Of a DNA stretch of 64,000 nt, positions 3,845-60,105 are shown in pieces. Location of the stretch: positions 193,311 to 257,310 of the forward strand of contig CBDDDS010000002.1 in the NCBI GenBank assembly GCA_965226745.1. Direction: 5' to 3'. Every line of letters starts with the position of its first letter. The first letter of the stretch is position 1. Origin of the DNA: Dehalococcoidia bacterium (GTDB lineage: Bacteria; Chloroflexota; Dehalococcoidia; Lucifugimonadales; SAR202-VII-2). A program made the position numbers and the translations under genes. A model generated the notes under the pieces. The model saw only the letters and a program-made list of their open reading frames with translations, did no database searches and had not been told where the DNA came from.

Positions 3845-4004
3845 TGCCGCCTCCCGGCCAATCCGCGGCGCCCCTGTCCCCACCGGCGTAGCGGAAGCCA
3901 GCCTCCCCGACGATGCGGGATAGGATCGACCGGTTGACGCCCCAATCGCGTGGCGGCGTGCGTCCTCACTGACCACGGTCGGCAACTTCACCAGCGCCTC
4001 CAAG

Positions 4005-4271
4005 TCAATCCGCGTCCCCGATGTGTGTTTCCCCATAGCGGAAGCCAGCCTCCTCAGCGATGCGGGACAGCATCGACCGGCTGATGCCGCGGGGGCGGTA
4101 GGCGCCTCGCTCCCACTCGCTGATGGTCTGCTGCCGGGTTCCCAGGCGGTCCGCCAACTCCGCCTGGGACAGGCGTAAATGACGCCGCAGGGCTTGCACC
4201 CTCTCCGGGTCCCAGGCGGCGGACGCCGGGCGTCTGTGCTGCGGATAGTCAACCATGAAGCCAGAGTACAC
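4005..4271 (-). CDS. XRE-family helix-turn-helix transcriptional regulator
   Basis: LRLSQAELADRLGTRQQTISEWERG is a classic HTH_XRE signature. An alternative start is ATG 4256. Confidence 0.8.
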   Translation of the reverse strand: MYSGFMVDYPQHRRPASAAWDPERVQALRRHLRLSQAELADRLGTRQQTISEWERGAYRPRGISRSMLSRIAEEAGFRYGETHIGDAD

Positions 4272-4389
4272 GAAACCGTGTAGCCAGACAAGAAACGGCG
4301 CTCTTGGAAGCAGCTTCCACCGGCCCCCTCAGAACGCGCAATGCGGGTGAAGACCGTGTAGAATCGCACTGATAAACCGAGGAGGCTAC

Positions 4390-5343
4390 ATGGAGACCAG
4401 AACGTTCGGAGGGCTTTGGGACGTCAGCGCGCTGACCCTGGGCGGCGGCGGCATCGGCCAGGTGTGGGGCGCGACGACGCGGGAGGAGGCCGTGGCCACG
4501 ACCCGAGAGGCGGTCGAAGCTGGGATCACGCTGTTGGATGTGGCGCCCCTCTATGGCCAGGGAGAAGCGGAGGTCGTGATTGGCGAGGCCTTCGGGGGCA
4601 GGCTGCCCCCAGGAGTTCGCGTGAGCACCAAGTGCCGGCTCGACAACCGCCCCGCCGCCGAGGTCGCCGCCACCTTGGAGGCCAGCCTGCGGGAGAGTCT
4701 GCGGAGAATGCGTCTCGAGCGCGTCGACGTCTTCTTCCTCCACAGCCAGGTCATCCAGGACGACGTCGAAAACCCGCACCAGAGCACGCCATTGAGTCTG
4801 CTTCGGGAAGCGGCCGCGCCGGCGCTCGCGATGATGCGGGAACAAGGTTGGATCGGCGCATGGGGCATGTCGGCCATCGGCGTCCCATCAGCGTTGCTCC
4901 AGGTCCTGGAGGACGGCCGGGCCCCGCAGGCAATCCAGGCCATCGCCAACTGCCTGGATTCACCCGGCGCTCTCAGACGCTACGACGAGCCGGACCGCCC
5001 CCGGGACATCATCGAGGCGGCGGTGCGGCGGGACGTCGCGGTCATGGGCATCAGAGCGGTGCAGGCCGGCGCCCTCACCGACGCGCTGGACAGGCCTCTC
5101 CCCGACGACCATCCGGAGATGGTCGATTTCCGCCGCGCCGCGCCTTTCCGGGCCATTGCCCAGGAGATCGGGGAAGCGCCCGCCGCCCTGGCGCACCGGT
5201 ACTCCCTTACGATGAAGGGCGTCGACACCGTGGTGCTGGGCGTCAAGAACCGGCGGGAGCTTCGGGAGTGCGTCGAAGCGGCGGAACGAGGTCCCCTAGA
5301 CCCAGAGCTGATGGCCCGCATCGACCAGGCGGTGGGCCGATAG
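4390..5343 (+). CDS. aldo/keto reductase
   Basis: 317-aa ORF. The LGGGGIGQVWG...EAVEAGITLLDVAPLYGQGEAEVVIGEA pattern is typical of the AKR family. Confidence 0.85.
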   Translation: METRTFGGLWDVSALTLGGGGIGQVWGATTREEAVATTREAVEAGITLLDVAPLYGQGEAEVVIGEAFGGRLPPGVRVSTKCRLDNRPAAEVAATLEASLRESLRRMRLERVDVFFLHSQVIQDDVENPHQSTPLSLLREAAAPALAMMREQGWIGAWGMSAIGVPSALLQVLEDGRAPQAIQAIANCLDSPGALRRYDEPDRPRDIIEAAVRRDVAVMGIRAVQAGALTDALDRPLPDDHPEMVDFRRAAPFRAIAQEIGEAPAALAHRYSLTMKGVDTVVLGVKNRRELRECVEAAERGPLDPELMARIDQAVGR

Positions 5344-5422
5344 CGTTGGCCGCGCGCCGTTGAAGAAGACCTTTGCAGAACCGGCGATGCCTCGCATCAA
5401 CCCGGTGGTGTACGACGCAATC

Positions 5423-5445
5423 CCTGCCCCCGACTACGGGGCAGG
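5423..5445. repeat. REP-like GC hairpin (family H3)
   Basis: CCTGCCCC-cgactac-GGGGCAGG lies between two convergent genes. It has the same consensus as the copies at 12588, 13034, 35554, 35658, 38783 and 57889. Confidence 0.6.
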
Positions 5446-5534
5446 TTGGGATAGAGGTCGCTGGGTAGTGCGGGAAACTCGGCGCAGGAGTTCTGCAATG
5501 GTTTCTAACGGGACGGGGTTCCGCCCGCGTCCGC

Positions 5535-6521
5535 TCAGGGATGCCGCCCATCAATCCCGGGAGGTGATGCCGGGCCTTCCAGCAGCGGCAGCACCTCCCG
5601 GGTGAACGTCTCGAGTTGCTCTAGGTAGCGGAACGAAGCGAACCGCACGACCACGGTTCCGGCCCCTGCCCTGGCGTACTGCGATATGCGCTCGGCCACG
5701 GCTTCAGGCCTGCCAAATGGCCCCCACCGGTCGCCCCAGTGGTTCACCCCGTAGTAGCGCATCAGAAAGGCGTTGGCCTCCTCCGACGCCCTTCCGGCGT
5801 CGGCGTCCAGGGCTACGGTCATGTAGAAGACCGTCTGGAGCTCGGCGGGGTCCCTGCCCTCCTCCCTGGCGTAGCCCCATACAGCGTCCCGGATGGCCGC
5901 AAACTCCTCGGGGGACGCCGTGATGGATATGAACCCATCTCCCAGGCAAGCCGCCCGCCGGAGCTGGCGCTCCGAGCCCGTATGGCTGTGGCAAGCCGTC
6001 AGCAGTGGCGCGCTCCCGTTGTGAGGCAGGGGGCGCACTGTCACCGGGTCGAAGCGGAAGTGGCGGCCCTCATGGGCAAACTCCCGTCCGGTCCACAGGC
6101 CGCGAAGAATCTGGATTGTCTCCTCCAAGCGGGCCCCGCGCTCGCCGGCGGGCACACCCGCGGCGGCCCATTCCCGCCGCATTTCCTCGGTGAACGCGCC
6201 TCCAACACCCATGCCGAGCACCAACCGCCCCCGCGATAGGTAGTCCACGGAGCCGATGACGTGCGCCAGTGGAACGGGATGCCTAAGGCTGGGCAGCAGG
6301 ACCGCCGTGCCCAGCCTTAGGCGGCTGGTCCGTGCGGCGATGGCCGCCAGCGTCGTCAGAGGGTCCAGCCGGGGCTTCGACGTGATGCTGTCTCCCACCC
6401 ACGCGGAGTCGAATCCTGCGGACTCGGCCAGCTCCGCCATGGCCAGCAACAGGCCGGCGTCGGGAGGCCCGCCATCCTGGGTCTCGAGGCCTCTGGTTGG
6501 CAACAGAACGCCGACGCGCAT
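5535..6521 (-). CDS. LLM-class (luciferase-like) flavin/F420-dependent oxidoreductase
   Basis: 328-aa ORF. AESAGFDSAWVGDS...RLRLGTAVLLPSLRHP...GRLVLGMGVGG is typical of luciferase-like monooxygenases. Confidence 0.85.
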   Translation of the reverse strand: MRVGVLLPTRGLETQDGGPPDAGLLLAMAELAESAGFDSAWVGDSITSKPRLDPLTTLAAIAARTSRLRLGTAVLLPSLRHPVPLAHVIGSVDYLSRGRLVLGMGVGGAFTEEMRREWAAAGVPAGERGARLEETIQILRGLWTGREFAHEGRHFRFDPVTVRPLPHNGSAPLLTACHSHTGSERQLRRAACLGDGFISITASPEEFAAIRDAVWGYAREEGRDPAELQTVFYMTVALDADAGRASEEANAFLMRYYGVNHWGDRWGPFGRPEAVAERISQYARAGAGTVVVRFASFRYLEQLETFTREVLPLLEGPASPPGIDGRHP

Positions 6522-6630
6522 GGAACCCTCCTAGGACGCCTTTGACCCATCCTACACGCTGCAATACCCGGCAGCAGCCCGCTCAGTGCCCTTCGCTCCC
6601 ATGTTGAAGCCAAATCCAGACTGGAAACGG

Positions 6631-7977: not shown

Positions 7978-9057
7978 CTAAGAAAAGCGAAAAACTCTGA
8001 TTGCCACTGCGGAGGCCAGGGCAATCCAGCCCGCCAGGATGGCCAGCTCCCCTGGAAACTCCCACAGCGGCCGCCCCTCCAGCGCCACGCCCCGCAGGGC
8101 ATCCAGCATCGGCGACAGCGGTAGGTACTCCACGATGGCCCGCAGGACGGTGGGCAGGCTGTCCCTGGGAAAGAACGCCCCCGACAGGAACATCATGGGC
8201 AGCGCGATAGCGTTGCCCATCCCACTGGCCGCCGCGGCCGTCTTCGAAAGAGCGCCCACGATGAACCCGAGGCTCAGGAACACCAGGTTGCCGAAGAGAA
8301 CAATGATGGCAATGGCAATGTAGCTGCCCTCCACCCTGGCGCCGTAGAACAGCACCCCCACTCCCAGAATGACGCCCGCCTGAAGCAGGGTCATCGCCAG
8401 GTACGCCAGCACCTGAGCCGAGAAGAAAGTGGAGATACGCAGGGGCGTGGCCTGAATCCGCTTGAGGATTCGCCGCTCCCGGAACACTGTGATCGACGAG
8501 GCCAGGCCCACGATGGAGTAGACCATGATGCCCATGCCCAGAATGCCCGGCAGAAGGAAGTCGAAGTAGTCCGCGCCAGCCGAGTAGACCCCCTCCGACT
8601 GCAGAACAAGAAGGGTCGGCGCCCCGGCAAGGGAGAGGTTGGCGTTGTCGAGGAACTGTCGAATGACCCCAACAACGAGGCCAGCCGTGGGGCTGCCCTC
8701 GTCGTAGAGGATCGTCACGTTGGCGGGAGGATTGTCCGTCACCCGTTCCTCGAGTCCGGCGGGCACGATGAGGAGGAACCCCAGGTCGCCGTCGGCAACC
8801 CCCTGCCTAGCCTTAGCCTCGTCGGCGCGGAACTCCACCTCCAGGACATCAACGTTGGCGAGGTCCCTCAGTAGACGGTCGGAGAGTGGGTCCTGGGCGT
8901 GATCGACGACGGTGATGGTTGTTACCGGAGCGCCATCGCCGATGAAGAAGCCGAACACGACGACAAACAGAAGGGGAAACGCCAGCGCCCAGAATACCGC
9001 CTGACGGTTCCGGAAGATGATCTTGAGGTTCGCGATGAAGAGACTGGGAAAGGCCAT
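7978..9057 (-). CDS. ABC-2 type transporter permease
   Basis: 359-aa multi-TM ORF located downstream of an ABC ATPase on the same strand. Confidence 0.85.
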   Translation of the reverse strand: MAFPSLFIANLKIIFRNRQAVFWALAFPLLFVVVFGFFIGDGAPVTTITVVDHAQDPLSDRLLRDLANVDVLEVEFRADEAKARQGVADGDLGFLLIVPAGLEERVTDNPPANVTILYDEGSPTAGLVVGVIRQFLDNANLSLAGAPTLLVLQSEGVYSAGADYFDFLLPGILGMGIMVYSIVGLASSITVFRERRILKRIQATPLRISTFFSAQVLAYLAMTLLQAGVILGVGVLFYGARVEGSYIAIAIIVLFGNLVFLSLGFIVGALSKTAAAASGMGNAIALPMMFLSGAFFPRDSLPTVLRAIVEYLPLSPMLDALRGVALEGRPLWEFPGELAILAGWIALASAVAIRVFRFS

Positions 9058-9191
9058 GGTCCGGCGCCCCTGTTCATTTCATTGTTTCGCCGCGGCTGTA
9101 GCCACCGCTGCCCGCTTCAGGGCCGGCGCTTGGGCCAAGCGACTGTGCCCCGCGCCGAGTCCTTCCCGGGGGACGAGGGGGTGACGCCGCC

Positions 9192-10130
9192 CTAATCCCT
9201 CAGGCCCCTACCCGTCAGCGACAGGAAGACGTCCTCCAGGTTGGACGGCTGAATCTCCAGGTGCTCCAACTCTCCGCCACATCGCCCCACCCAGGCCAGT
9301 AGAGCCGGAAGCGTCCGGGCGGCGTCCGAAGAACCCAGTGCGAAACCGGCATCGGCGTCCACGCGCACATTGACGACGGCGTCCAATGATTCCAGGGTCT
9401 CTCTGGGAGGCCCTCCTCTGACCACCGCCTTGATTTCGTAGGGAGTTGGCAGAGACTTCACGAGGTTCTGCGGCGCGTCCAGAGCCACGATCTTGCCGCG
9501 GTCCATAATGGCAACCCGGTGGCATAGCTGCTGGGCCTCTTCCATGTAGTGGGTGGTCAGCACCACCGTCCGGCCCTCGCCGTGGATTTCCAGAATGAGG
9601 TCCCAGAGGTTCCGACGGGCCTGGGGGTCAAGCCCCGTCGTCGGTTCGTCCAGAAAGATCAACTCCGGGTCGTTGAGCAACGTGGCGGAAATAGAGAAGC
9701 GCTGCTTCTGGCCGCCGGAGAGCTTCCCTACCGTTGCGCCGGCCTTGTCGGCCAGGTCCATACGCTGCAACAGGGCGTCGGCGGAGACGCGGCGGGGATA
9801 GAAGCGCTGGAAGAGCAGGAGCGTCTCTCGAAGCGACAGATAGTCGAAGTAGGAGGAGGTCTGAAGCTGAATGCCGATGCGCTTCTTGACCTCCCTGGCC
9901 TGCCGGGGAACCTCCAGGCCCAGGACGCGGATGGCGCCGGCCGACGGCTTCAGCAGGCCCTCGATGCACTCCAGCGTGGTCGTCTTGCCGGCGCCATTGG
10001 GCCCCAGAATGCCGAATATCTCGCCCCGATGCACCTCGAAGGAAACGCCGTCGACCGCGGTAACGCCCCCGAACCGCTTGACCAGGCTTTCCACAAGGAT
10101 GACGGGGTCACGTTCCGGCGCCACGCGCAC
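9192..10130 (-). CDS. ABC transporter ATP-binding protein
   Basis: Walker A GPNGAGKTT, signature LSGGQKQR and Walker B LIFLDEPTTGLD are all present. Confidence 0.9.
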   Translation of the reverse strand: MRVAPERDPVILVESLVKRFGGVTAVDGVSFEVHRGEIFGILGPNGAGKTTTLECIEGLLKPSAGAIRVLGLEVPRQAREVKKRIGIQLQTSSYFDYLSLRETLLLFQRFYPRRVSADALLQRMDLADKAGATVGKLSGGQKQRFSISATLLNDPELIFLDEPTTGLDPQARRNLWDLILEIHGEGRTVVLTTHYMEEAQQLCHRVAIMDRGKIVALDAPQNLVKSLPTPYEIKAVVRGGPPRETLESLDAVVNVRVDADAGFALGSSDAARTLPALLAWVGRCGGELEHLEIQPSNLEDVFLSLTGRGLRD

Positions 10131-11709: not shown

Positions 11710-12080
11710 CTTTTCAGTTCCGTTGCGGGGGTTGGAGTCTGGGGGCGTTGCCGCCAGCCCTGTGGGGCCGCTCACCCAGGCCATTGTATCACGGGCGGCG
11801 GCAACGCCTTCACGGGCCGTTCCACTAACCCTGGCCCGGGGGGTTGCAGCGGACTGGAATCCACCGACACAGCGGGGCCATTGTTCCGACGCCCCGAGCA
11901 CCTCGGTGCGCCGCGCCCTGCGTGGGCAGCGCCGCCGGCGGCCTCCCAAGGGCAACAGCGACGGGAGCGAGAGCGGAAGTCCACAACACCTCGACGCGAT
12001 AACAGGTAAGACTTCTGGATGGTGAGCGAGGTCTTGTTACGCCAATCAGCCGGATTTCGGTGGGGGTAGGCACGGAGCCA

Positions 12081-12169
12081 GTACAAAGGCGTAATAGGGC
12101 GTAACGAGCCGTAATGAAGCTGTAAAGGATCTGTAATGGATCTGTAATGGAGCCGTAACGAACCGTAAT
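12081..12169. repeat. phased tandem array, 9 cores (GTAC, then GTAAT/C/A)
   Basis: Core starts are 12081, 12091, 12101, 12111, 12122, 12133, 12144, 12155 and 12165. The intervals are 10,10,10,11,11,11,11,10 bp. Confidence 0.85.
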
Positions 12170-12365
12170 GGAGCGGGATGGCTCCAAGGAGCCTGCCTCA
12201 CAACGGCAGTCGCTCCGGTCCCAGCCTTCCTCGGAGGGTTGTGGGCCTGGGGATGTTCCCCAAGCCCCTGCCACAGGGGGATTCTCTGTGGTTAGCCCCC
12301 AGTACATACGTTATGCGGCAGGCTCCAAGGAAGAGAAGCGGGCCGGGGGCCCACTTCCTGGCGAT

Positions 12366-12394
12366 ACCATAGCACAATAGTTCGGATTTTGCAA
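12366..12394 (-). promoter_or_regulatory. promoter-like motif at the distal end of copy A
   Basis: On the minus strand: TTGCAA, a 17-nt spacer, then tgtgcTATGGT (an extended -10 style TGn). The same arrangement is present in copy B. Confidence 0.35.
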
Positions 12395-12456
12395 TGGGGG
12401 GGGGCGCCTCCTAACCTGCCCTCAAGTACCGAGAGAGAGAGGGGCTTATGGTCGCG

Positions 12457-12555
12457 GGCACCGTTATCCCACCTAGCCCCCTCCAACGTTTGGGGTTACA
12501 GGGGGACACGCTGTTCCCCCGGCGGGGGCTGCGCCCCCTGCACCCTGCTTGGGGG
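12457..12555 (+). repeat. double-hairpin module H2
   Basis: GGGGGACAcgcTGTTCCCCC followed by GGGGGCtgcGCCCCC. It is homologous to 38850..38950 (inverted) and 15819..15925. Confidence 0.75.
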
Positions 12556-12587
12556 ACGGAGGAGGCGCGTCCGAACCCCCTTCCTAG

Positions 12588-12642
12588 CCTTCCTCCGAAT
12601 ACGGGGGCAAGGACAGACATCCTCTCCCCCGACTATAGGGTA
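12588..12642. repeat. two REP-like H3 hairpin copies
   Basis: CCTTCCTCCGaataCGGGGGCAAGG plus a second, degenerate copy CTCTCCCCCGACTATAGGG. Confidence 0.55.
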
Positions 12643-12688
12643 TGGTCCACCCACATGTGTCACGCATACCGCGGAGGCGTGCGGCGCC

Positions 12689-12717
12689 TTGAAAGCTGCG
12701 AGCCGGTCTCGTAGACT
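12689..12717 (+). promoter_or_regulatory. sigma70-like promoter candidate for the glutaredoxin-like gene
   Basis: TTGAAA, a 17-nt spacer, then TAGACT, located 43 nt upstream of ATG 12760. Confidence 0.35.
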
Positions 12718-12759
12718 CACCGTGTGGGGCAACGGCCCGGCCCGGGGAGGAGGACGCTT

Positions 12760-14773: not shown

Positions 14774-14858
14774 TGCTTCCGGCGGAGGGAATCCTTGGGA
14801 GCAGTTCCCGACGCCGGGATGAGGGCGGAACGCTTGGCCCTCCGACGCCGGCCGGGGA

Positions 14859-15008
14859 CTGTTCACACTGGCGGGCTGGATTACCAGGCTAGCCGGAAGA
14901 ACGGCGGCTTTGTCAGGCCACATAAGGCTGATGAAAAGGGGGTGGCCCAACAGACGGGCGGGAACCTTGGGTTCTCTGAACCCTCCCTAGACGGAGGGCT
15001 TTGTTTGG
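14859..15008 (+). repeat. end module E5 plus linker module M6
   Basis: CTGTTCACACTGGCGGGCTGGATTACC...GATGAAAAGGGGGTGGC, then AGACGGGCGGGAACCTTGGG...CCTCCctagacGGAGGG. It is homologous to the reverse complement of 35750..35938. Confidence 0.75.
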
Positions 15009-15323
15009 GGGTATACACAAAGTGTTTCCCGGCGGTATCATCTGTGCGCGCTACGCGGAAACCGCTCTGTCTAGGGCAGGATGATGCGAGCCAAGGAACG
15101 GAGGAGCGGGATGGCCAAGAGACGAGGAGCAGAAGACCGACCGCGTCCAGCCATCCAAGCCGATACAGCCAATCTCCGGCGCCTTCGAGAGCGTGCTTCA
15201 GCCTCTAGTCCGGCCACGCCCTGCAAAGCAGCCCAAGCGCAGCCCCTAGGGTAGCGCCGACGATTGGCCTAACCCCCATCCGACGCCCAAACGGGCAAGA
15301 ATACCTCCTCAAGTGAGGTTGAC

Positions 15324-15770
15324 ATGAAGCGAAACGTGAAACTTTGGGCCGGCGGTCTGCTCGTTTTGCTCCTGGTCGCGGCGTGCGGCGGGGGACAAAG
15401 TGTCTTCTCTCTGGAGGTCGGAGACTGCTTTGACGACCCGGCCAGCCAGACCTCCGAGTTGTCGGAGGTCGACGAAGCCTCATGCTCGGAGCGCCACGAC
15501 AACGAGGTCTACGCGGTCGCCGACCACCCTGCGAGCGACAGCGCGCCGTATCCCGGCGATGACGTGTTTGAGGCCTACAGCTTTGGCTACTGCCTCAGTG
15601 AATTCGAGACCTACGTCGGACTCTCCTACGAGCTGTCCCGTCTCGACGTTGGTTACCTCTACCCTTTGCGGGACGGATGGCAGCAAGACGACGACCGTGA
15701 GGTCTCCTGTTACCTTTACGACCTGAATTTGGCCAAACTTACGGGGTCAATGAAGGGCAGTGGTGAGTAG
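15324..15770 (+). CDS. secreted lipoprotein (septum-formation-like Cys-rich domain)
   Basis: The signal peptide has a lipobox LLVAAC. The VGDCF...ASCSERHDNEVY...GYCLSEF pattern follows. A GAGG lies upstream of the ATG. Confidence 0.7.
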   Translation: MKRNVKLWAGGLLVLLLVAACGGGQSVFSLEVGDCFDDPASQTSELSEVDEASCSERHDNEVYAVADHPASDSAPYPGDDVFEAYSFGYCLSEFETYVGLSYELSRLDVGYLYPLRDGWQQDDDREVSCYLYDLNLAKLTGSMKGSGE

Positions 15771-15818
15771 CCCTCGCCGCGTGATCCAGCCTCGTGGGCA
15801 AAATCCCGCATAGGCCCC

Positions 15819-16020
15819 TTTGTTTTGGCCTGCGCCGCTATCCCGCCCGCTCCGCCCTCCGACGGTTTCCAAAGCAGGGGCACTCGCTGTACCCGCGGCG
15901 GCGGCTGCGCCCCCTGCACCCCGCTCGGCGAGACGAAAGCCCCATCCTTGACGGTGCAGGCGTATTGGTCGTTGTATGGTCCTCCAATGACAGCCCAATT
16001 CGGTGTATTAGCGTGAACAG
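15819..16020 (+). repeat. H2 module plus end module E4
   Basis: TTTGTTTTGGCCTGCGCCGCTATCCCGCCC...GCTGCGCCCCCTGCAC, then ...CAATTCGGTGTATTAGCGTGAACAG. The E4 part is the inverted homologue of 35435..35525. Confidence 0.75.
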
Positions 16021-16065
16021 TCTCTAGCCGAACATTCCACCCTACCCGCCCCCTGCTATCCCTTC

Positions 16066-17855: not shown

Positions 17856-17957
17856 CCTAGCACAGGGTAACCAAAGCACTCGTTTCCATGCCTGGCAGTC
17901 TAACACCGTGCGCATCGCGTCAAAACGATAATGCTGTTTTCCGACACTAGGCGCCAG
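17856..17957 (+). repeat. ~100-nt repeat R, copy 1
   Basis: CCTAGCACAGGGTAACCAAAGCACTCGTTTCCATGCCTGGCAGTC...CTGTTTTCCGACACTAGGCGCCAG. About 80% identical by eye to 19096..19197 in the same orientation. Confidence 0.75.
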
Positions 17958-17985: not shown

Positions 17986-18813
17986 TCACCCGCGGGTCAA
18001 GGCTGGCTGGGCATTTTCCGCGCGCCGCCGGGTTGTTATCACGCGATCGCCTGTGGGCTGGACAGGACGATTGTTGGGACCGCCGCTCAACGCCAGAAGG
18101 CTATCAACCTGCTCCGGGGAGATGGTTTTGGGCTGGCGCATGACGTACCAGTCAACCGGTTCACCGCACGGGGGTGTCGTCTTTGAGCCGTCGTACCGAT
18201 AATAGCCGAGTTCGCCCGGCGCGTAGCCCCTGGCATTGAGAGCAAAGCCGTCGACGACAGTATTGGTAGCCGCCGGGGCAGCATCGAGAATCTCCTGCGC
18301 TATTGGGCTGGGCGCGCCCAGCTCAAACAGCAGCCCGACGACTGCCAGGGCATCGTCAGCATCCGCATGGACCAAGTGCAGTTCTGCCGCAAAGCTCGCG
18401 CCGTCTATCCGATGCTCTGATGGTGAATGGAAGTGCGCCGACTTTAGCTCGTAGGTCCGCTGGCCAACGCTCAGGGTGTTACCCGCCATATAGTCAACAT
18501 GGACAAATTTGCCATCGTTGTGGACGGACGCAGCATCGACGCTGTATGAGAACGAAATGGGCGCGGCGTTGCCCTTGGAGGATCCGGCAATATCAATTGG
18601 AGATTGCTGCTTGCCGTCGGCGCAGGTTGCGTACTCTTCGGACAACGAGGCCCAAAATTCCGGCGCGCCCGGCCCATCGTACCCCCACTTCACCGCCTGA
18701 TCGGAACGGCCGCAAGCCGCGCCTGTGAGCAATGCCGCCAGCAGGCACGCCAGCATCAGCCCAACAATTCTCAGCCCTGGCTGATGCTTCAAGCTGAACT
18801 GGCTATCCATCAT
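17986..18813 (-). CDS. alpha-class carbonic anhydrase with lipoprotein-type signal
   Basis: QSPIDI, HFHSPSEH and ELHLVH zinc-ligand motifs of alpha-CA are present. The likely start is ATG 18813 (MMDSQ...LLTGAACG lipobox). The track ORF extends to 18897. Confidence 0.85.
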   Translation of the reverse strand: MMDSQFSLKHQPGLRIVGLMLACLLAALLTGAACGRSDQAVKWGYDGPGAPEFWASLSEEYATCADGKQQSPIDIAGSSKGNAAPISFSYSVDAASVHNDGKFVHVDYMAGNTLSVGQRTYELKSAHFHSPSEHRIDGASFAAELHLVHADADDALAVVGLLFELGAPSPIAQEILDAAPAATNTVVDGFALNARGYAPGELGYYRYDGSKTTPPCGEPVDWYVMRQPKTISPEQVDSLLALSGGPNNRPVQPTGDRVITTRRRAENAQPALTRG

Positions 18814-18911
18814 TGCCCGGCTGTCTCCGTTACCGTCTCGACGCGAATTCTCTCGTAGGCGGGCGCGATCTCCCACTGGAGGCAACACGATGTCCAACAG
18901 CGGATCGTCCT

Positions 18912-19095: not shown

Positions 19096-19197
19096 CCTAG
19101 CATCTGGTAACCAAAGTAAGCGTTTCCATGTTTGGCAGTCGAACGCCGTGTGCAAGGGGTCAAAACGACAACGCTGTTTTCCAACACTAGGCGCCAG
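19096..19197 (+). repeat. ~100-nt repeat R, copy 2
   Basis: Direct repeat of 17856..17957, 1240 bp away. Confidence 0.75.
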
Positions 19198-33829: not shown

Positions 33830-35431
33830 ATGAACCACGACCCGCTGTCCATTCCAGGCGCCCTCGGTCGGACGGCGGCGACCACCCCCACGCTGGTGTT
33901 TCGCAACGCCAACGTCATCACCCTCCATCCCGGACAGCCGGTTGCAACGCAGGTCGCCATCACGGGCGGGCGGATTCGATGGGTGGGCGGCCCGGAGGGC
34001 TTGGGCGCCGCGCCGCCGGCGGCGGGTGCGCGGATCATCGACCTGGGAGGCCGCACGGTCCTGCCGGCCTTCAACGATGCGCACATTCACCTGCTGTCCC
34101 TGGCCGCCATCATTTGGTCCGTCGACTGCGGCCCCGGGCAGGTCAGGTCGATTCGGGATATTCAGCGTCTCATCGCCGGCCAGGCCCGCCGCGCTCGACC
34201 GGGCGAATGGGTGCGGGCCTTCGGGTACGACGAGGCTGCGTTGGGGGAGAGAAGACACCCCAACCGGGCGGACCTGGACGAAGCGTCCTTTGATGTTCCC
34301 GTTAGGCTCATCCACCGCTCGGGTCACGCCTCGGTGCTCAACACCGCGGGCCTCGACCGGGTCGGCCTCCGGTGGGACGCGCCCGACCCTGAGATTGGGT
34401 ATGTCGAGCGCGATCCGCTGACCGGCCACCCCACCGGCTTCCTCGTGGACATGGAGGAGCGACTTGCCGAAGCGGCGCCGAGACCGTCCTACGAGCTGGT
34501 GCGGGACGGTCTGGCTCAGGCCAGCCGTTGCCTGGTGAGCCAGGGCGTCGCGTCAGTGCAGGACGCCACTGTCAAGAACGACGTGGAGCGGTGGAACCTC
34601 CTTCAGCGGGTGAAGGCCGACGGGGTCTTTGCGCCGCACATCACCTTCATGCCGGGCATCAACCACCTTGGGGACTTCGCAGCGCGCGGCCTTGGCTTCG
34701 GCGCTCAGAGCGGCGGCCTCCGCATCGGCCACGCCAAGATTGTTGCAGCGCTGGCCAACGGCGGGGCGCAGCCCAGCGGAGAGGACTTGACGCGGCTGGC
34801 AACGGGGGCGCGGGCGGCGGGGTATCCGGTGGCCATCCACGCAGTCGAGGCTGAGGTCGTCGCGGCGGCTATACGAGCCCTGCGGGACGCCCAAGGCAGG
34901 GACGGCGACTGGAACCTGAGAGACAGAATAGAACACGCCTCGGAGCTTCCGGACGATCTGTTGCCCGCTCTATGGCAATCGAGGATTCAGGTGGTGACTC
35001 AGCCGTCTTTCCTATACTACAGCGGCGACCGCTACCTTGCCGAGATCGCGCCGGCCCGCCGGCCCTGGCTGTACCGCGGCGCCTCCCTCTTTGCCGCAGG
35101 CATCGCGCCGCCCGCCGCCGGTTCCGACGCCCCCGTAGCCCCGGCCAACCCCCTACGCAGCATTTACGCGGCCATCACCCGAAGGTCGCAGAGCGGAGCG
35201 CAACTGTCGCCGGAGGAAGGGGTCGCGCCTCTCCGGGCGGTGGAGATGCATACCCGCCATCCCGCCGCCGCCGCTCACGAGGAGAAGGCGCGGGGCGCCA
35301 TTACGCCCGGAAGGGTCGCGGACCTGGTGGTGTTGGACAGGAATCCACTGGACTGCCCTCCCGACGAGATCCCGGACATACGAGTCCACATGACGATCGT
35401 CGGCGGGCATATTGCCTGGGAGGGCGGCTAG
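33830..35431 (+). CDS. amidohydrolase-3 family metal-dependent hydrolase
   Basis: 533-aa ORF with an N-terminal ...LPAFNDAHIHLL metal-binding HxH and a C-terminal ...GRVADLVVLD. Confidence 0.8.
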   Translation: MNHDPLSIPGALGRTAATTPTLVFRNANVITLHPGQPVATQVAITGGRIRWVGGPEGLGAAPPAAGARIIDLGGRTVLPAFNDAHIHLLSLAAIIWSVDCGPGQVRSIRDIQRLIAGQARRARPGEWVRAFGYDEAALGERRHPNRADLDEASFDVPVRLIHRSGHASVLNTAGLDRVGLRWDAPDPEIGYVERDPLTGHPTGFLVDMEERLAEAAPRPSYELVRDGLAQASRCLVSQGVASVQDATVKNDVERWNLLQRVKADGVFAPHITFMPGINHLGDFAARGLGFGAQSGGLRIGHAKIVAALANGGAQPSGEDLTRLATGARAAGYPVAIHAVEAEVVAAAIRALRDAQGRDGDWNLRDRIEHASELPDDLLPALWQSRIQVVTQPSFLYYSGDRYLAEIAPARRPWLYRGASLFAAGIAPPAAGSDAPVAPANPLRSIYAAITRRSQSGAQLSPEEGVAPLRAVEMHTRHPAAAAHEEKARGAITPGRVADLVVLDRNPLDCPPDEIPDIRVHMTIVGGHIAWEGG

Positions 35432-35434
35432 GGC

Positions 35435-35938
35435 CTGTTCACGCTAATACACCGAATTGCGTTGTCAATGGAGGACTGTACAACGACAAATGCGCCTCCA
35501 CTGTCCATTATGGAGCTTTCGTCCCGCCGCGCGGGGTACAGGGGCGACTCTATCCCTTCCTCCGAGTACGGGGGCAGGTTAGGAAGCGTCTGGACGCGCC
35601 AAGGAGAGAAAGCGACGCCCCTTTCGTTCCTCAAGCGGGGGCCGGAGGTGTCTCTGTCCCTGCCCCCGAGTACGGGGGCAGGCTAGGAAGGGGGTTTCTC
35701 CCCCTGTTCTGGAAAACGTCGGAGGGCGGAGCGGGCGGGATAGCGGCGCAGGCCAAGACAGACCCTCCGCTGAAGGAGGGCGCAGGCGACAACAAGACCA
35801 TCCGTTCAGAGAGGGCCCAGGGCCACCCAAGGTTCCCGCCCGTCTATAGCGCCAACCCGTTTTCATCAACCTTATCTGGCCTGACAAAGCCTCTGTCCTA
35901 CCGGGCCAAGGCCGGTAATCCAACCCCCTAGTGTGAAC
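35435..35938. repeat. 504-bp composite repeat (E4-H2 remnant-H3-H3-H2 part-M6-E5) filling a convergent intergenic gap
   Basis: The left end is CTAGGGCCTGTTCACGCT. The right end, reverse-complemented, is CTAGGGCATGTTCACACT (16/18 identical). The internal modules are homologous to 12457..12642, 14859..15008, 15819..16020 and 38783..39012. Confidence 0.8.
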
Positions 35939-35943
35939 ATGCC

Positions 35944-36918
35944 CTAGACGCGCCGCTGGACGGCGTACTGGGCAAGGCCCGCCATACAGCGGCGGGTCTC
36001 GTTGTCCGGCAGAAGGTCAAGGGCGGCCATAGCCTTGGCGGAGAACTCTCCCGCAACACCGAAGGAGTCTCGCATGATGGGCGACTCGCGGATGAGGGCC
36101 ACAGCCCGTTCCAGGTTGAGGTCGGGCTCGGTCCCCTGGAACAACGCCTCGATGGGATTGTCTTTGGGTTGCCTCTCCAGCAGCAGTATAGCCGGAAGCG
36201 TGAGGGTTCCCTGCAACAGGTCGCTGCCCACGGGCTTGCCAACCTCTTCGGCGTCCCCCTCGATGTCCAGGATGTCGTCCATAACCTGAAAGGCCATGCC
36301 CAAGTTGTACCCGTACTCCCTCATTGCCTGCACCACGTCTTCCCCTGCCCCGCTGAGCACAGCGCCGGACTCGGTGGCGGTCTTGAACAGGGAGGCGGTC
36401 TTGCGATAGGTGCGCTCCAGGTACTGCTCCCGCGTCACTGTCCAGTCCCTGGCCGCCATGTACTCCATCAGCTCGCCGGAGGATAGCTCCATGATGGTCT
36501 CGGCGAAGCGGCGGATGACCCGGACGTTCCCTGTGTCGCACACGCAGGTGGCCGAGAGGGCAAAGACGTAGTCGCCCACGAGAACGGCGACTTTTTCTCC
36601 CCAGAGGCTATGGATTGTCGCCTTGCCCCGCCGCAGAGAAGACCTGTCCACAGTGTCGTCGTGAATCAGGGTGGCGATGTGCAAGAGCTCGACGGCCCGG
36701 GCCATCAGCAGCGGGTTGTGACGGCCCTCGGGGCCGAAATGGGAAGCCAGCATGGTCACCGCCGGCCTGATGACCTTCCCTGGAGTGTCCAGAACGTGGT
36801 CGAGCATGTCCGCCAGGACCGGGTAGTTGGCCTCCACGGCCAGGTCTTTGAGGCCCTGCTTGACCCTTGCCAGATCGTCCAGCACCGGTGCGTAGAGAGA
36901 GAGCAGTTGCGTTGTCAT
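35944..36918 (-). CDS. polyprenyl diphosphate synthase
   Basis: First DDxxD (LIHDDTVD) and second (FQVMDDILD) aspartate-rich motifs are present. Coordinates are from the track. Confidence 0.85.
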   Translation of the reverse strand: MTTQLLSLYAPVLDDLARVKQGLKDLAVEANYPVLADMLDHVLDTPGKVIRPAVTMLASHFGPEGRHNPLLMARAVELLHIATLIHDDTVDRSSLRRGKATIHSLWGEKVAVLVGDYVFALSATCVCDTGNVRVIRRFAETIMELSSGELMEYMAARDWTVTREQYLERTYRKTASLFKTATESGAVLSGAGEDVVQAMREYGYNLGMAFQVMDDILDIEGDAEEVGKPVGSDLLQGTLTLPAILLLERQPKDNPIEALFQGTEPDLNLERAVALIRESPIMRDSFGVAGEFSAKAMAALDLLPDNETRRCMAGLAQYAVQRRV

Positions 36919-38655: not shown

Positions 38656-38782
38656 GGGCCGGTGAAAGCATCAGGCCGCTTATGCTCTCGGGACTCGAGA
38701 CTCTTGCATTACCTGTATCACGCGCAAATGGCTCCATGCTTACCGACGACACCTCGCGTCACCTGGCGGTGTGCGACTCTGT

Positions 38783-38810
38783 CCCTGCCCCCGACTACAG
38801 GGCAGCCTGG
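38783..38810. repeat. REP-like H3 hairpin copy
   Basis: CCCTGCCCCCGACTACAGGGCAGCCTGG. Confidence 0.55.
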
Positions 38811-38849
38811 GAAGCGCCCAGACGCGCCAACGCAAGCTCGCCCCCGTCT

Positions 38850-38950
38850 CCCAAGCGGTGTGCAGGGGGCGCAGCCCCCGCCGGGGGTACAGCGTGTACC
38901 CCTGTACCCAGAAACGTCGGAGGGTGGGCAGGTGGGACAACGGCGCAGGC
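38850..38950 (-). repeat. double-hairpin module H2 (inverted copy)
   Basis: GGGGGCgcaGCCCCC and GGGGTACAgcgTGTACCCC. Colinear with the reverse complement of 12457..12555. Confidence 0.75.
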
Positions 38951-39012
38951 CAAAGCAGACCCTCCGCCGAAGGAGGGCGCAAGCCAAAACAAATCCATCC
39001 GCCCAGGTTATG
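38951..39012 (-). repeat. partial linker module M6
   Basis: CAGACCCTCCgccgaaGGAGGGCGCAAGCC... is homologous to 35757..35800. Confidence 0.6.
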
Positions 39013-39023
39013 CCCCACCCCCC

Positions 39024-39052
39024 TTGCAAAATACGAACTATTGTGCTACGGT
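39024..39052 (+). promoter_or_regulatory. promoter-like motif at the distal end of copy B
   Basis: TTGCAA, a 17-nt spacer, then tgtgcTACGGT. It is orthologous to 12366..12394 and points through the element toward the ABC operon. Confidence 0.35.
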
Positions 39053-39250
39053 ACCCCCATGAAGTGGGCCACCGGCCCGCTTCTCTTTCTCGGAGCCTGC
39101 CGCATATGTTCGGACAGGGGGATTCTCTGTGGACTCCCCCTGTGGCAGGGGCGCTGAGGGAACAACCCAAGGGGCAAGACCCTCCGAGGAAGGCTGGGAC
39201 CGGAGCGAATGCCGTTGTAAAGCACAGGCTCTTTGGAGCCATCCCGCTCC

Positions 39251-39349
39251 GTAACGACTCGTAACGACTCGTAACAACTAGGTAACGGTTCGTAACGGCT
39301 CCGTAACGACTCGTAACAGCTTTGTAACGGCCTGTAACGCCTTTGTAAT
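39251..39349. repeat. phased tandem array, 10 cores (GTAAC x9, GTAAT x1 on the + strand)
   Basis: Core starts are 39251, 39261, 39271, 39282, 39292, 39303, 39313, 39324, 39334 and 39345. The intervals are 10,10,11,10,11,10,11,10,11 bp. Confidence 0.85.
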
Positions 39350-39515
39350 GGCTCCGTGCCTGCAAACCCCGAAATCTGGCTGACAAGCGTTACAAAGCCT
39401 CGCTCACCGTCCGGAAGTCTTACCTGTTGTCACATGGAGGTGCTATAGATTACCGCTCCCGTTCCCGCCGCTTTAGCCCTTGGTGCGCCCACCGGCTCTC
39501 GCCTGCTCTGCGCTC

Positions 39516-42446: not shown

Positions 42447-43820
42447 TTAGCGGGACGCCACGAACGCGTTGAACTGTTCCAGCTTCTTCTGTTCCAGCCA
42501 GCGGGTGTTGAGACGCCCCTCCAGATAGTCCTGCTCGTCCATGAGCCAGGCCAGGAAGGGAATGTTTGTCTCGATGCCCTCAACCCTGAAGTCCATGAGG
42601 GCGTCCTTCATGCGCTGGATGGCCTCGGCCCGGCTGGCCCCTCGCGTGATCAGCTTGGCAATCATCGAGTCGTAGAAGGGCGGCACAACGTAACCGGGGT
42701 AGCAGTGGGTGTCGATCCGCAGGCCTGGCCCGGTGGGCGGGGCCCATTCGGTGAGCAGGCCCGGCGACGGCTGGAAATTGCGCAGGGCGGATTCCGCGGT
42801 AATCCGGCATTCGATGGAGTGGCCAAAGAAGCGCACGTCGGTCTGGGTGAAGGGCAGCGGGTTGCCGGAGGCGATGCGGAGCTGCTCCTGGACCAAGTCC
42901 ACGCCCGTGATCATCTCGGTGACGGGGTGCTCCACTTGAATCCGCGTGTTCATTTCCAGGAAGTAGAACTTGTTGGCATCCTGGTCCAGCATGAATTCGA
43001 CGGTGCCGGCGCTCTCGTAGCCGATCCGGCGCGCCGCCGTTGCCGCCGTCTCTCTGATTTCCTCGCGGAGGGCCTCAGAGACCGCGTGGGCCGGAGCCTC
43101 TTCGATGATCTTCTGGTAGCGCCGCTGCACCGAGCAGTCGCGCTCTCCCAGATGGACCACGTTGCCGAAGCGGTCGCCGAGGACCTGGACTTCGATATGG
43201 CGCCCGTTGCCGACGAACCGCTCCATATAGAGGGAGTCGTCTCCAAAGGCGGCGAGGGACTCGGCTGCCGCCGTCTCGAAGGTGGACTGCAACTGGTCGC
43301 TCTCGTGGACGATCTTGATGCCGCGCCCGCCTCCGCCTGCGGCGGCCTTGAAGAGCACGGGAAAACCGATCTCGGCGGCAACCGACGCGGCTTCCTGCGC
43401 GCTGCGCACTCTGGGCGAGCCTGGGACCAATGGGACTCCATAGGCCTTCACCGCCTCGCGGGCCTCCAGCTTGTTCCCCATCAGGCGGATGCTCTCCGCT
43501 CGCGGGCCCACGAACTGGATACTGTTTTCGACGCAGGCCTCAGCCAGAGCGGGAGATTCAGCCAGGAAGCCGTAGCCGGGGTGCAAGGCGTCGCAACCTG
43601 TGCCCAAGGCGGTCTCGATCAGTGCGCCCACCCGGAGATAGCTGTCAGCGGAGCGCGGCGGCCCGATGCACACAGCCCGGTCTGCGATCTGCGGGCCCAT
43701 GCTGTGCCGGTCCGCCTCGGAGAAAACGGCCACGGTTTCGATGCCCAACGCCTGGCATGCTCTGATGACTCTGACCGCGATCTCGCCTCGGTTGGCGACT
43801 AGAACGCGGGAGACGCTCAT
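42447..43820 (-). CDS. accC: biotin carboxylase
   Basis: 457-aa ORF. VLVANRGEIAVRVIRA...ATP-grasp...EMNTRIQVEHPVTE. Confidence 0.9.
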   Translation of the reverse strand: MSVSRVLVANRGEIAVRVIRACQALGIETVAVFSEADRHSMGPQIADRAVCIGPPRSADSYLRVGALIETALGTGCDALHPGYGFLAESPALAEACVENSIQFVGPRAESIRLMGNKLEAREAVKAYGVPLVPGSPRVRSAQEAASVAAEIGFPVLFKAAAGGGGRGIKIVHESDQLQSTFETAAAESLAAFGDDSLYMERFVGNGRHIEVQVLGDRFGNVVHLGERDCSVQRRYQKIIEEAPAHAVSEALREEIRETAATAARRIGYESAGTVEFMLDQDANKFYFLEMNTRIQVEHPVTEMITGVDLVQEQLRIASGNPLPFTQTDVRFFGHSIECRITAESALRNFQPSPGLLTEWAPPTGPGLRIDTHCYPGYVVPPFYDSMIAKLITRGASRAEAIQRMKDALMDFRVEGIETNIPFLAWLMDEQDYLEGRLNTRWLEQKKLEQFNAFVASR

Positions 43821-44377
43821 TCGGAGCCGCCGTCCGGCCTGATCAGGAACAGGGCCTGGCCGTATTCCACGAATTGGGCGTTCTGCACCAGGATCTGCTC
43901 GATGACGCCGTTGACGCCCGCACTGATGCTGTTGAACACCTTCATGACCTCAATGAGGCCCACCGTGGCGTCCTCATCCACCCTTGCGCCCACCTCGGTG
44001 AACGGAGGAGCGCTGGGTTCAGGCGCAGCGTAGAACGTCCCCACCATTGGGGCGTGGACGGGCACGAGCCCCTCGGTGGAGGCCGGGGGAGCGGGCGCGG
44101 CCGGCTCAGGGGCCGCGGCCGGAGCAGGCGCGGCGACCGGAGCGGGCGCGGCGGCCGGCTCGGAAGCGGCAGCCGGAGCTGGCTCAGGGGTCGCAGCCGC
44201 CACCGCAGGAGCGGGCGCGGCGGCAGCGGCGGCAACAATGGCCGGGGCCATGCTCAGGTCGATGTCGCCGCGGCTGACGGTCAGGTTCAAGTCGCCCATG
44301 CGCAACTGGAAGTAATCGAAGCTGGACTTGTCGATCAGGTCGAGGATTTGAATGATGTCTTCTTCGGTGAGGTCCAT
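43817..44377 (-). CDS. accB: biotin carboxyl carrier protein with a long Ala/Pro linker
   Basis: The C-terminal biotinyl domain has IEVMKV (the biotinyl-Lys motif). A ~70-aa AP-rich linker precedes it. There is a 4-nt overlap with accC. Confidence 0.85.
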   Translation of the reverse strand: MDLTEEDIIQILDLIDKSSFDYFQLRMGDLNLTVSRGDIDLSMAPAIVAAAAAAPAPAVAAATPEPAPAAASEPAAAPAPVAAPAPAAAPEPAAPAPPASTEGLVPVHAPMVGTFYAAPEPSAPPFTEVGARVDEDATVGLIEVMKVFNSISAGVNGVIEQILVQNAQFVEYGQALFLIRPDGGSE

Positions 44378-57799: not shown

Positions 57800-57967
57800 C
57801 GCTAGTTATCGTCCCCAGGGAGGTTGTGCGCGACCACCATCTTAACCGTTCCTCGTACCCGATAGGAAGGAGGGGTCCCCCTTCCTATCCTTCCCCCGTA
57901 ACCGGGGGAAGGGACGGGAGATGCTCCCGCCTCGCGCCTGCAACTGTACGATCCCTGGGAAGTACAG
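57800..57967. repeat. cluster of four hairpins plus repeat fragments in the atpB-atpE spacer
   Basis: Hairpins at 57862..57888, 57889..57912 (H3 family, CCTTCCCCCG-taac-CGGGGGAAGG), 57915..57929 and 57944..57967. TCGTCCCCAGGGAGGTTGTGCGCG at ~57809 matches 17825..17848. Confidence 0.6.
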
Positions 57968-59862: not shown

Positions 59863-60105
59863 GGCTTGGTCCCTCCCTTGCATCCTCGGTTGAACAACGA
59901 TTCTAGTCCCCGCCCGTTTGGAGTGTCAATGAACGGAAGGCGCAGGGGAGGACGCTTCCTAGCCTTCCCACGAGTATTAGGGAAGGCCTAGGAAGGATTC
60001 CGCTTTGCGGGTGTTCCGTGATGTTCCGGGGAAGCATCCTTGGCTTGAGGGGGTCGTCCTTGCCCGCTAGGGTAGCCATAGCTATACTTGAATGAAAGGA
60101 GCTTG

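Follow-up and report, generated by a model that had tools for sequence, protein, structure and literature searches.

How a repeated sequence can come to fill the space between two convergent genes so exactly that it begins at the stop codon of each is the question raised by a short interval in the genome of an uncultured Dehalococcoidia bacterium (contig CBDDDS010000002.1). The interval, positions 35432..35943 of a stretch of 64,000 nucleotides with a G+C content of ~64% (this whole stretch being referred to hereafter as the window), lies between a YtcJ-like amidohydrolase gene and a polyprenyl synthase gene and separates their stops by 512 bp, rather than by the 504 bp given in a preliminary description of the locus. 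That description had offered two readings, one being a mobile element akin to the miniature transposable elements with inverted repeats (MITEs) and the other a pair of 3' untranslated region (3'-UTR) modules that meet head-on. Based upon the present analysis, 35432..35943 is very probably a non-autonomous, non-coding transposable element, i.e. a MITE, which inserted in a CTAG common to the two stops. The family is new and belongs to an uncultured Dehalococcoidia lineage, but the element is of a known and ordinary kind; its one neat twist is the insertion into a CTAG shared by overlapping convergent stops.

Inverted ends, duplicated target and empty sites

As had been described, the repeat fills the convergent gap with 18-nt inverted ends located at both TAGs. 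The left end reads CTAGGGCCTGTTCACGCT (35428-45) and the right end, when reverse-complemented, reads CTAGGGCATGTTCACACT (35947-30), and the two are identical at 16/18 positions, or at 17/20 when extended. It had also been stated that no target-site duplication is present, which is incorrect, as the + strand carries CTAG as a direct repeat at 35428-31 and 35944-47. This duplication is readily overlooked because CTAG is its own reverse complement and a direct copy consequently mimics four extra bases of inverted repeat. The terminal inverted repeats proper are 14 nt in length and imperfect (5'-RGCCTGTTCACRCT), and three independent full copies, like the orthologues of those copies, have RGCCTGTTCACRCT at either end. 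Since the 11-mer core of the end is only weakly enriched in the window (5 matches versus 1.6 expected, allowing <=1 mismatch), the significance of the ends rests upon homologous copies and empty sites and not upon the motif count.

Orthologues of the amidohydrolase were searched and the surrounding contigs of relatives were compared (loci labelled L002-L021). In one relative, L005, both genes overlap by 4 bp (4001..5596 on the + strand and 5593..6567 on the - strand) and there is no element between them. This empty site reads ...GAGGGCGGCTAGACGCG... / ...GGCGGCTAGACGCG..., with one CTAG that contains both stops, whereas the filled site in the window, L004, L006 and L002 reads ...GGCGGCTAG-element-CTAGACGCG.... 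Repeat-free orthologues ending in TAGGGC, which the preliminary description had named as evidence against an element, were not encountered, as the orthologue ends ...CTAGACGCG. The same comparison disposes of the suggestion that the element supplies stop codons, since both TAGs are copies of a pre-existing CTAG whose overlapping stops are seen in L005. In neighbor-joining trees of both flanking genes, L005 is sister to the four occupied lineages, while in the outgroups L007, L009 and L010 (~70% amino-acid identity) the genes are 5-6 bp apart with neither a CTAG nor an element. The simplest history would be one insertion after the split from L005. It is conceivable that the element was instead ancestral at the site and was lost from L005 by precise excision or by a deletion between the CTAGs, and a deletion between 4-bp direct repeats would indeed recreate the exact L005 sequence. 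However, we consider this very unlikely: a single gain is more parsimonious than a loss in L005 because L005 is sister to the entire occupied clade and because neither the element nor the CTAG is present in the next outgroups. Even if a loss had occurred, it would still represent transposon behavior.

A second pair of filled and empty sites was found at an unrelated locus. A GTDB scan of one genome per species, using the end pattern of the right arm of the element (E5), identified one genome only, the metagenome-assembled genome Dehalococcoidia OZ253584.1, in which the pattern occurs in three places. The L012 locus of this genome holds a full copy of 353 bp (CTAG-AGCC...GGCC-CTAG; CTAG-AGCCTGTTCACGCT...AGTGTGAACAGGCC-CTAG), and its second CTAG contains the TAG at which a 2-hydroxyacid dehydrogenase gene (4349..5422, - strand) terminates. 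At L021, which encodes a protein 95% identical to that of L012, the gene ends ...CTGCTGGGCTAG with a single CTAG and runs straight into the downstream flank, the element being absent. The flanks of L012 and L021 past the CTAG are homologous, with an exact match of 15 nt at equal offset in both (local score 30 versus 14.4 +/- 2.2 in 500 shuffles). The L012 copy represents an insertion that is independent of the first and, once more, located at a TAG stop within CTAG, and the target duplication can be read from both filled and empty pairs, L005 and L021 each having a single CTAG. The termini of both the window copy and the L012 copy base-pair in single-strand folds, as is expected of inverted repeats. 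In total, copies were found at three unrelated loci, namely the amidohydrolase site, the L012 site and a PrsW/thiamine pyrophosphate (TPP) enzyme spacer, together with partial copies at L013 and L014, which are one-ended and each flanked by TTAG. All intact flanks seen are accordingly of the form YTAG, three loci having CTAG and the pair of one-ended copies TTAG.

The PrsW/TPP-enzyme spacer lies within the window, and the two ends previously noted there, at 16020 and 14859, were correctly placed. CTGTTCACGCT occupies 16010-16020 (- strand), ~45 nt beyond the TPP-enzyme stop (16066-68), and CTGTTCACACT is found at 14859, 86 nt beyond the PrsW stop (14771-73). Alignment with the full L012 and L004 copies identifies them as the two termini of one further copy. 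Both had been remarked upon for being in sense orientation to the upstream gene, which is simply because an inverted-repeat element between convergent genes has two outward-facing ends. The outer flank of the E5 half is CCGG (14852-55) in the window and CCAG in a 97% relative, L020, and probably represents a CTAG that decayed stepwise. This copy is split by a 0.8-kb segment encoding a 148-aa Septum_form-domain lipoprotein (15324..15770). Each of the two junctions of the segment carries (C)TTTGTTT(T)GG, a repeat of element sequence. The split could be due to an insertion into the element or could reflect a cargo-bearing form. Integron attC sites carry GTTRRRY, which the internal GTTTTGG junction does not fit, and an attC reading of the junction was rejected. 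In the outgroups L017 and L018, the PrsW and TPP-enzyme genes are directly convergent (113 and 38 bp apart, respectively) and neither the element nor the lipoprotein gene is present; these spacers are unalignable with the window, and an exact empty site for the second copy was not obtained from them.

The MITE-like, non-autonomous element of the preliminary description is therefore borne out by its terminal inverted repeats, its target duplication, two empty sites and copies at unrelated loci. Its size and coding content are likewise those of a MITE, with 353-363 bp for the basic copies and 512 bp here, and only spurious open reading frames (ORFs). The other reading, in which two independent 3'-UTR modules (structured RNAs or terminators), one per gene, meet head-on and are maintained by selection, was rejected and is in our estimation extremely improbable. 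The sense orientation of each end relative to its upstream gene, with a start at or close to the stop, would suit such modules, as would the folding of the region, which is better than that of shuffles (z = -3.2). However, the orientation is automatic for the outward ends of an inverted-repeat element between convergent genes. Furthermore, both arms were gained together and both are missing in L005 and L021, such that the unit running from the left arm (E4) to E5 behaves as one block that is present or absent as a whole, and this unit also recurs beside unrelated genes. Selection is similarly difficult to reconcile with the rate of change: the orthologous copies have an identity of 0.88-0.90, compared to 0.89-0.93 at the third codon positions of the flanking genes, and the element drifts at the synonymous rate. 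There was no Rfam match at the gathering threshold in the window apart from tRNA elsewhere, and none at E <= 1 in 35300-36100. A Pfam search of the six-frame translation of the element returned no match, a promoter scan of the element found no promoter-like site, and a terminator scan found one weak terminator-like site, which is not above shuffles (mean 0.7). We read the element as selfish or neutral DNA.

Anatomy and growth of the element

The interior of the window copy is built from modules found elsewhere, as the preliminary description had recognized. A BLAST search of the region against the window found relatives for 35426-35602 and 35621-35939, i.e. for all but ~18 nt, the partners being located at 15911-16029, 15821-15880, 14860-15005, 38773-38830 and 38899-39001, with hairpin partners at 5413, 12574 and 57877. 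The basic element of ~355-365 bp has three parts, which are the E4 left arm (inverted repeat plus ~90 bp), an H2-M6 center (~135 bp) and the E5 right arm (~125 bp plus inverted repeat). The H2-M6 module is also found without arms at 38845-38978 and 12479-12552 of the window as well as in L013 (three times), L020, L004 and L006. The coordinates of all parts are collected in Table 1.

Table 1. Coordinates of the flanking genes, of the two window copies of the element with their parts, and of the H3 hairpins
Feature	Position	Strand	Basis or remark
Amidohydrolase gene (YtcJ-like), left flank	33830..35431	+	ORF list; Pfam Amidohydro_3, E = 4.7e-74; stop TAG 35429-31
Left target copy CTAG, holds amidohydrolase stop	35428..35431	.	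Sequence; one CTAG at L005 empty site
Left terminal inverted repeat GGCCTGTTCACGCT	35432..35445	+	Same end at 16012-16025 (-), L012, L020, L004, L006
Left arm, E4 + 5' part of H2 hairpin	35432..35544	+	85% identical to reverse complement of 15911-16029; aligned with L004, L006, L012
Secondary insertions	35545..35699	+	Not in 363-bp orthologous copy of L004 (alignment)
3' part of H2 + M6 module	35700..35757	+	93% identical to reverse complement of 15821-15880; 82% to 38899-39001
34-bp hairpin insertion CCCTCCGCTGAAGGAGGG	35758..35791	+	Window copy only; gap in L004, L006; related sequence 38950-38990
Right arm, E5	35792..35943	-	80% identical to reverse complement of 14860-15005; aligned with L004, L006, L012, L013, L014
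Right terminal inverted repeat GGCATGTTCACACT	35943..35930	-	Outer end of E5 right arm
Right target copy CTAG, holds polyprenyl synthase stop (cta 35944-46)	35944..35947	.	Sequence, ORF list
Polyprenyl synthase gene, right flank	35944..36918	-	Pfam polyprenyl_synt, E = 5e-66; TAG stop reads cta at 35944-46
Second copy, E5 half	14856..15009	+	Alignment with full L012, L004 copies
Segment splitting second copy, ~0.8 kb	15010..15810	+	Lipoprotein gene inside
Second copy, M6-H2-E4 half, ends in terminal inverted repeat AGACTGTTCACGCT	15811..16025	-	BLAST and alignment
CTAG flanking second copy	16026..16029	.	36 nt downstream of TPP-enzyme stop (16066-68)
H3 copies, window	5413-5451, 12574-12617, 35554-35586, 35658-35690, 38777-38814, 57877-57915, 59938-59976		Family alignment
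H3 copies outside window	L012 3920-3960; L014 6119-6164		

Within the occupied clade, the size of the element follows the tree, being 363 bp in the basal L004, 458 bp in L006 and 512 bp in the window. The gain in L006 is a ~104-bp unit bearing an H3 hairpin (35554-35586 in the window copy, as the first of its secondary insertions). The window copy further gained a second H3 hairpin inside H2 (35658-35690), where it stands in place of the H2 center, and the 34-bp hairpin at 35758-91. The orthologous copies show a growth from 363 to 458 to 512 bp via the nested insertion of small hairpins resembling repetitive extragenic palindromes (REPs), in an insertion that otherwise drifted neutrally. The orthologous copy in L002 (5606-6898) is rearranged to 1293 bp, has ends that are both of the E5 type and carries the H2-M6 module in inverted orientation. 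Its cargo of ~1 kb (50% G+C) encodes a protein of 151 aa and a Cys-rich peptide of 47 aa, both without a Pfam match.

H3 is a dispersed REP-like hairpin (consensus CTCTGTCCCTGCCCCCGAnTACGGGGGCAGGTTAGGAAGGGGG) with a 10-bp G+C stem, among the copies of which compensatory G-C to T-A changes are found. Such hairpins raise the question of whether the entire repeat might be a palindrome mosaic of the REP type or of the bacterial interspersed mosaic element (BIME) type, spread by a REP-associated tyrosine (RAYT, Y1) transposase or by recombination and lacking terminal inverted repeats as a defining feature. The REP-like H3 hairpins of the interior are indeed dispersed at 5413, 12574, 38777, 57877 and 59938, the H2-M6 module of the interior is dispersed as well, and REPs are known to be biased to convergent intergenic regions (PMC3184786). 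We nonetheless find this explanation highly unlikely, since what was gained at each of the two sites with an empty counterpart has 14-nt inverted repeats and a duplicated CTAG as its borders, two features foreign to REPs and BIMEs, whose units are palindromes of 20-40 bp associated with a RAYT gene, and since the H3 hairpins are later additions that are absent from the L004 and L012 copies.

Two further observations concern reading frames at this locus. In the window, an alternative reading frame is open through the element (34972-35931), and in L006 the gene caller predicts a 681-aa "amidohydrolase" (4001-6046) that crosses the element even though the CTAG stop is intact. The L006 call is probably an annotation or frameshift artifact.

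Target choice and the transposase

Considered as a MITE, the element would have relied for its mobility on a transposase that is provided in trans, recognizes the inverted repeats and is most likely of the DDE cut-and-paste type. Staggered cuts at a YTAR tetranucleotide, usually CTAG, would then lead to duplication of the target. At the amidohydrolase locus, the insertion occurred in the ancestor of the four sampled lineages, into a single CTAG with overlapping TAG stops, as the filled and empty sites show. The CTAG palindrome presents TAG on either strand, and its duplication therefore left each gene with its own intact stop and its protein unchanged. That the repeat "exactly fills" the gap and starts at both stops is because the duplicated CTAG held both stops.

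The location of copies at gene ends could be explained similarly by target sequence together with selection. A C-TAG stop would be a frequent location because CTAG is required for insertion, because insertions survive only where they are harmless and because duplication regenerates the stop. CTAG is scarce in the window, with 85 occurrences versus 209 expected from mononucleotide composition (0.41 of that expectation) or 126 from a Markov model, and 13 of the 85 act as stop codons. TAG terminates 32 of the 54 called genes and is the commonest stop, which is unusual at 64% G+C. The earlier proposal that the element targets gene 3' ends is better expressed as CTAG/YTAR targeting, given how often genes end in TAG and CTAGs serve as stops. 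With just three independent CTAG insertions, of which two are at stops, it cannot be argued that gene ends are actively preferred.

The YTAG flanks point to two classes of insertion sequence (IS). IS5 duplicates Py-T-A-Pu, mostly CTAG but also TTAG (PMC5493358), and an IS5-like duplication would comprise all 4 bp. An IS630-like duplication would comprise TA only. Both fit every flank and cannot be separated, given a palindromic target and a TAG ahead of each element end. The possibility that the same element was mobilized by a transposase of the IS630/Tc1-mariner type, which would make it one base longer at each end (GGGCCTGTTCAC...), must be taken seriously, although on balance it is doubtful. 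According to the statement in PMC2170065 that refers to Tenzen & Ohtsubo 1991, IS630 transposes preferentially to the TA in 5'-CTAG-3' and duplicates TA. Both empty sites are compatible with this, given that CTAG is palindromic and TAG precedes every end, and a G follows the TA at all ends seen, as if it were part of the element. Conversely, the base before the TA is C or T in all intact flanks (three loci with CTAG, two with TTAG), which is the YTAR pattern of IS5, and an IS630-type transposase was seen at no locus; the copies sampled are far too few for a decision. The IS481 family, which produces a 6-bp duplication of NCTAGN, was also considered and rejected, as the empty site reads GCTAGA and the filled site reads GCTAGG at the left and CCTAGA at the right, with CTAG alone being repeated.

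Several observations weigh against a MITE. Firstly, an autonomous element with matching ends was not found in the window, the 21 loci, the GTDB and JGI contig scans, viral contigs or plasmids. The E4-type and E5-type end patterns gave no match in JGI metagenome contigs (two scans), the E5-type pattern gave none in viral contigs, and the L012 copy gave none by blastn against plasmids. The sole IS seen nearby in a relative, at L020, carries unrelated ends (GAGACCTTTGCRTAA). Secondly, the copy number appears to be low: the 64 kb contain 2 copies, and the 3.09 Mb of OZ253584.1 contain only 3 exact ends of the E5 type. Between loci, the copies share 80-91% identity and no pair is near-identical, so recent activity is not demonstrated. 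Thirdly, the L013 and L014 copies have one recognizable end only. The central H2-M6 module is found elsewhere without ends, from which it follows that a part of the mosaic may stem from recombination between repeats rather than from transposition. Lastly, the size of the duplication, CTAG or TA, fits both ways with the copies at hand.

Two candidate parents were examined among the relatives. The IS at L020 (7293-8509) is a member of the IS5 family that encodes a 316-aa transposase with DUF772 and DDE_Tnp_1, is flanked by GTGGTC repeats and occupies the place of the repeat-rich spacer at 11955-12724 of the window. It was rejected as the parent due to its differing ends, which excludes this particular IS and not the IS5 family. 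In L005, which is devoid of the MITE, an rve integrase gene (8449..9596) adjoins MetRS, where the window has a ~700-bp mosaic repeat. It was rejected as well, having no relative elsewhere and no matching ends. A tblastn search with the L020 transposase and the L005 integrase against all loci and the window yielded nothing further.

Cargo, neighboring repeats and comparison with known systems

A more ambitious interpretation would be that, in a gene-dense Dehalococcoidia lineage, the family carries new DNA or offers it a landing pad, rather than being just a passive MITE. Three observations could be cited in its favor: 1) the second window copy is split at the internal GTTTTGG by a lipoprotein-gene segment that is missing in outgroups, 2) the orthologous copy of L002 holds a different 1-kb cargo of 50% G+C with two small ORFs, and 3) a carbonic anhydrase gene that is absent from outgroups is located between two copies of another, ~94-bp repeat that is bounded by CTAG. 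If one CTAG-directed machinery were to move such repeats together with single genes, this would constitute a route of gene gain at TAG stop codons. We presently judge the carrier interpretation to be unlikely.

The window also contains other repeats. The ~94-bp direct repeats (17857-17950 and 19097-19190) are 83% identical, have CTAG at both ends of each and have no Rfam match; they bracket an alpha-type carbonic anhydrase gene (17986..18897, - strand). In L017 and L018, the LGT gene directly adjoins the TPP-enzyme gene and the carbonic anhydrase is absent there. A ~700-bp mosaic repeat is found at 11946-12617 and 38761-39483, in copies that are 79-89% identical, inverted with respect to each other and located upstream of two divergent gene pairs. 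It includes tandem 10-11-bp CGTAACGRCT units (39250-39343; 12150-12195) as well as H2-M6 copies, and in the outgroup L007 the MetRS/ABC-transporter spacer measures 190 bp only. Within the gene 43817..44377 (- strand), a tandem repeat of at least 5 units of 18 bp (GCGGCCGGAGCAGGCGC-like) is present at 44078-44218.

Several implications follow from regarding the repeat as a MITE. A simple rule emerges, namely that when a palindromic target that encodes a stop on two strands is duplicated, insertion between overlapping convergent genes alters neither protein. For annotation, the repeat should not be called a small RNA, a 3'-UTR motif or a protein extension. Its presence or absence and its size (0, 363, 458, 512 and 1293 bp) provide markers for ordering close uncultured Dehalococcoidia lineages. 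The element would also imply that a CTAG/YTAR-directed transposase is, or formerly was, active in the lineage.

Among known systems, the IS5 family and its derived MITEs offer a close parallel in flanking sequence, as the element is likewise flanked by Py-T-A-Pu, mostly CTAG and in some cases TTAG (PMC5493358). Like IS5-derived MITEs, it is non-coding, is MITE-sized and has short terminal repeats that start with G/A-G. Ends in the IS5 family are known to start with GG or GA. The differences are that no IS5-type transposase with matching ends was found among the loci and collections searched and that the host is an uncultured Dehalococcoidia. MITEs related to IS630/Tc1-mariner, of which the Correia elements of Neisseria are an example, share the preference for TA in CTAG and are similarly small inverted-repeat elements in intergenic DNA, whereas here no IS630-type transposase was seen and the JGI, viral and plasmid collections searched contained no similarity.

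A different set of parallels is provided by intergenic repeats that are not defined by their ends. E. coli BIMEs and REPs as well as the pneumococcal BOX, RUP and SPRITE repeats resemble the element in being mosaic, modular and intergenic and in containing small G+C-rich hairpins, and pneumococcal repeat elements are also known to insert into one another (PMC10969869). Unlike these, the repeat described here is a mobile unit with terminal inverted repeats, a target duplication and two empty sites, the hairpins being passengers within it. Mycobacterial interspersed repetitive units (MIRUs) are intergenic repeats whose borders are at the stop or start codons of flanking genes; they are minisatellite units that occur in tandem within co-directional operons and have no inverted ends. 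The coincidence of borders with the stops of flanking genes is thus common to MIRUs and to the element, but in the latter it is due to the duplicated CTAG target.

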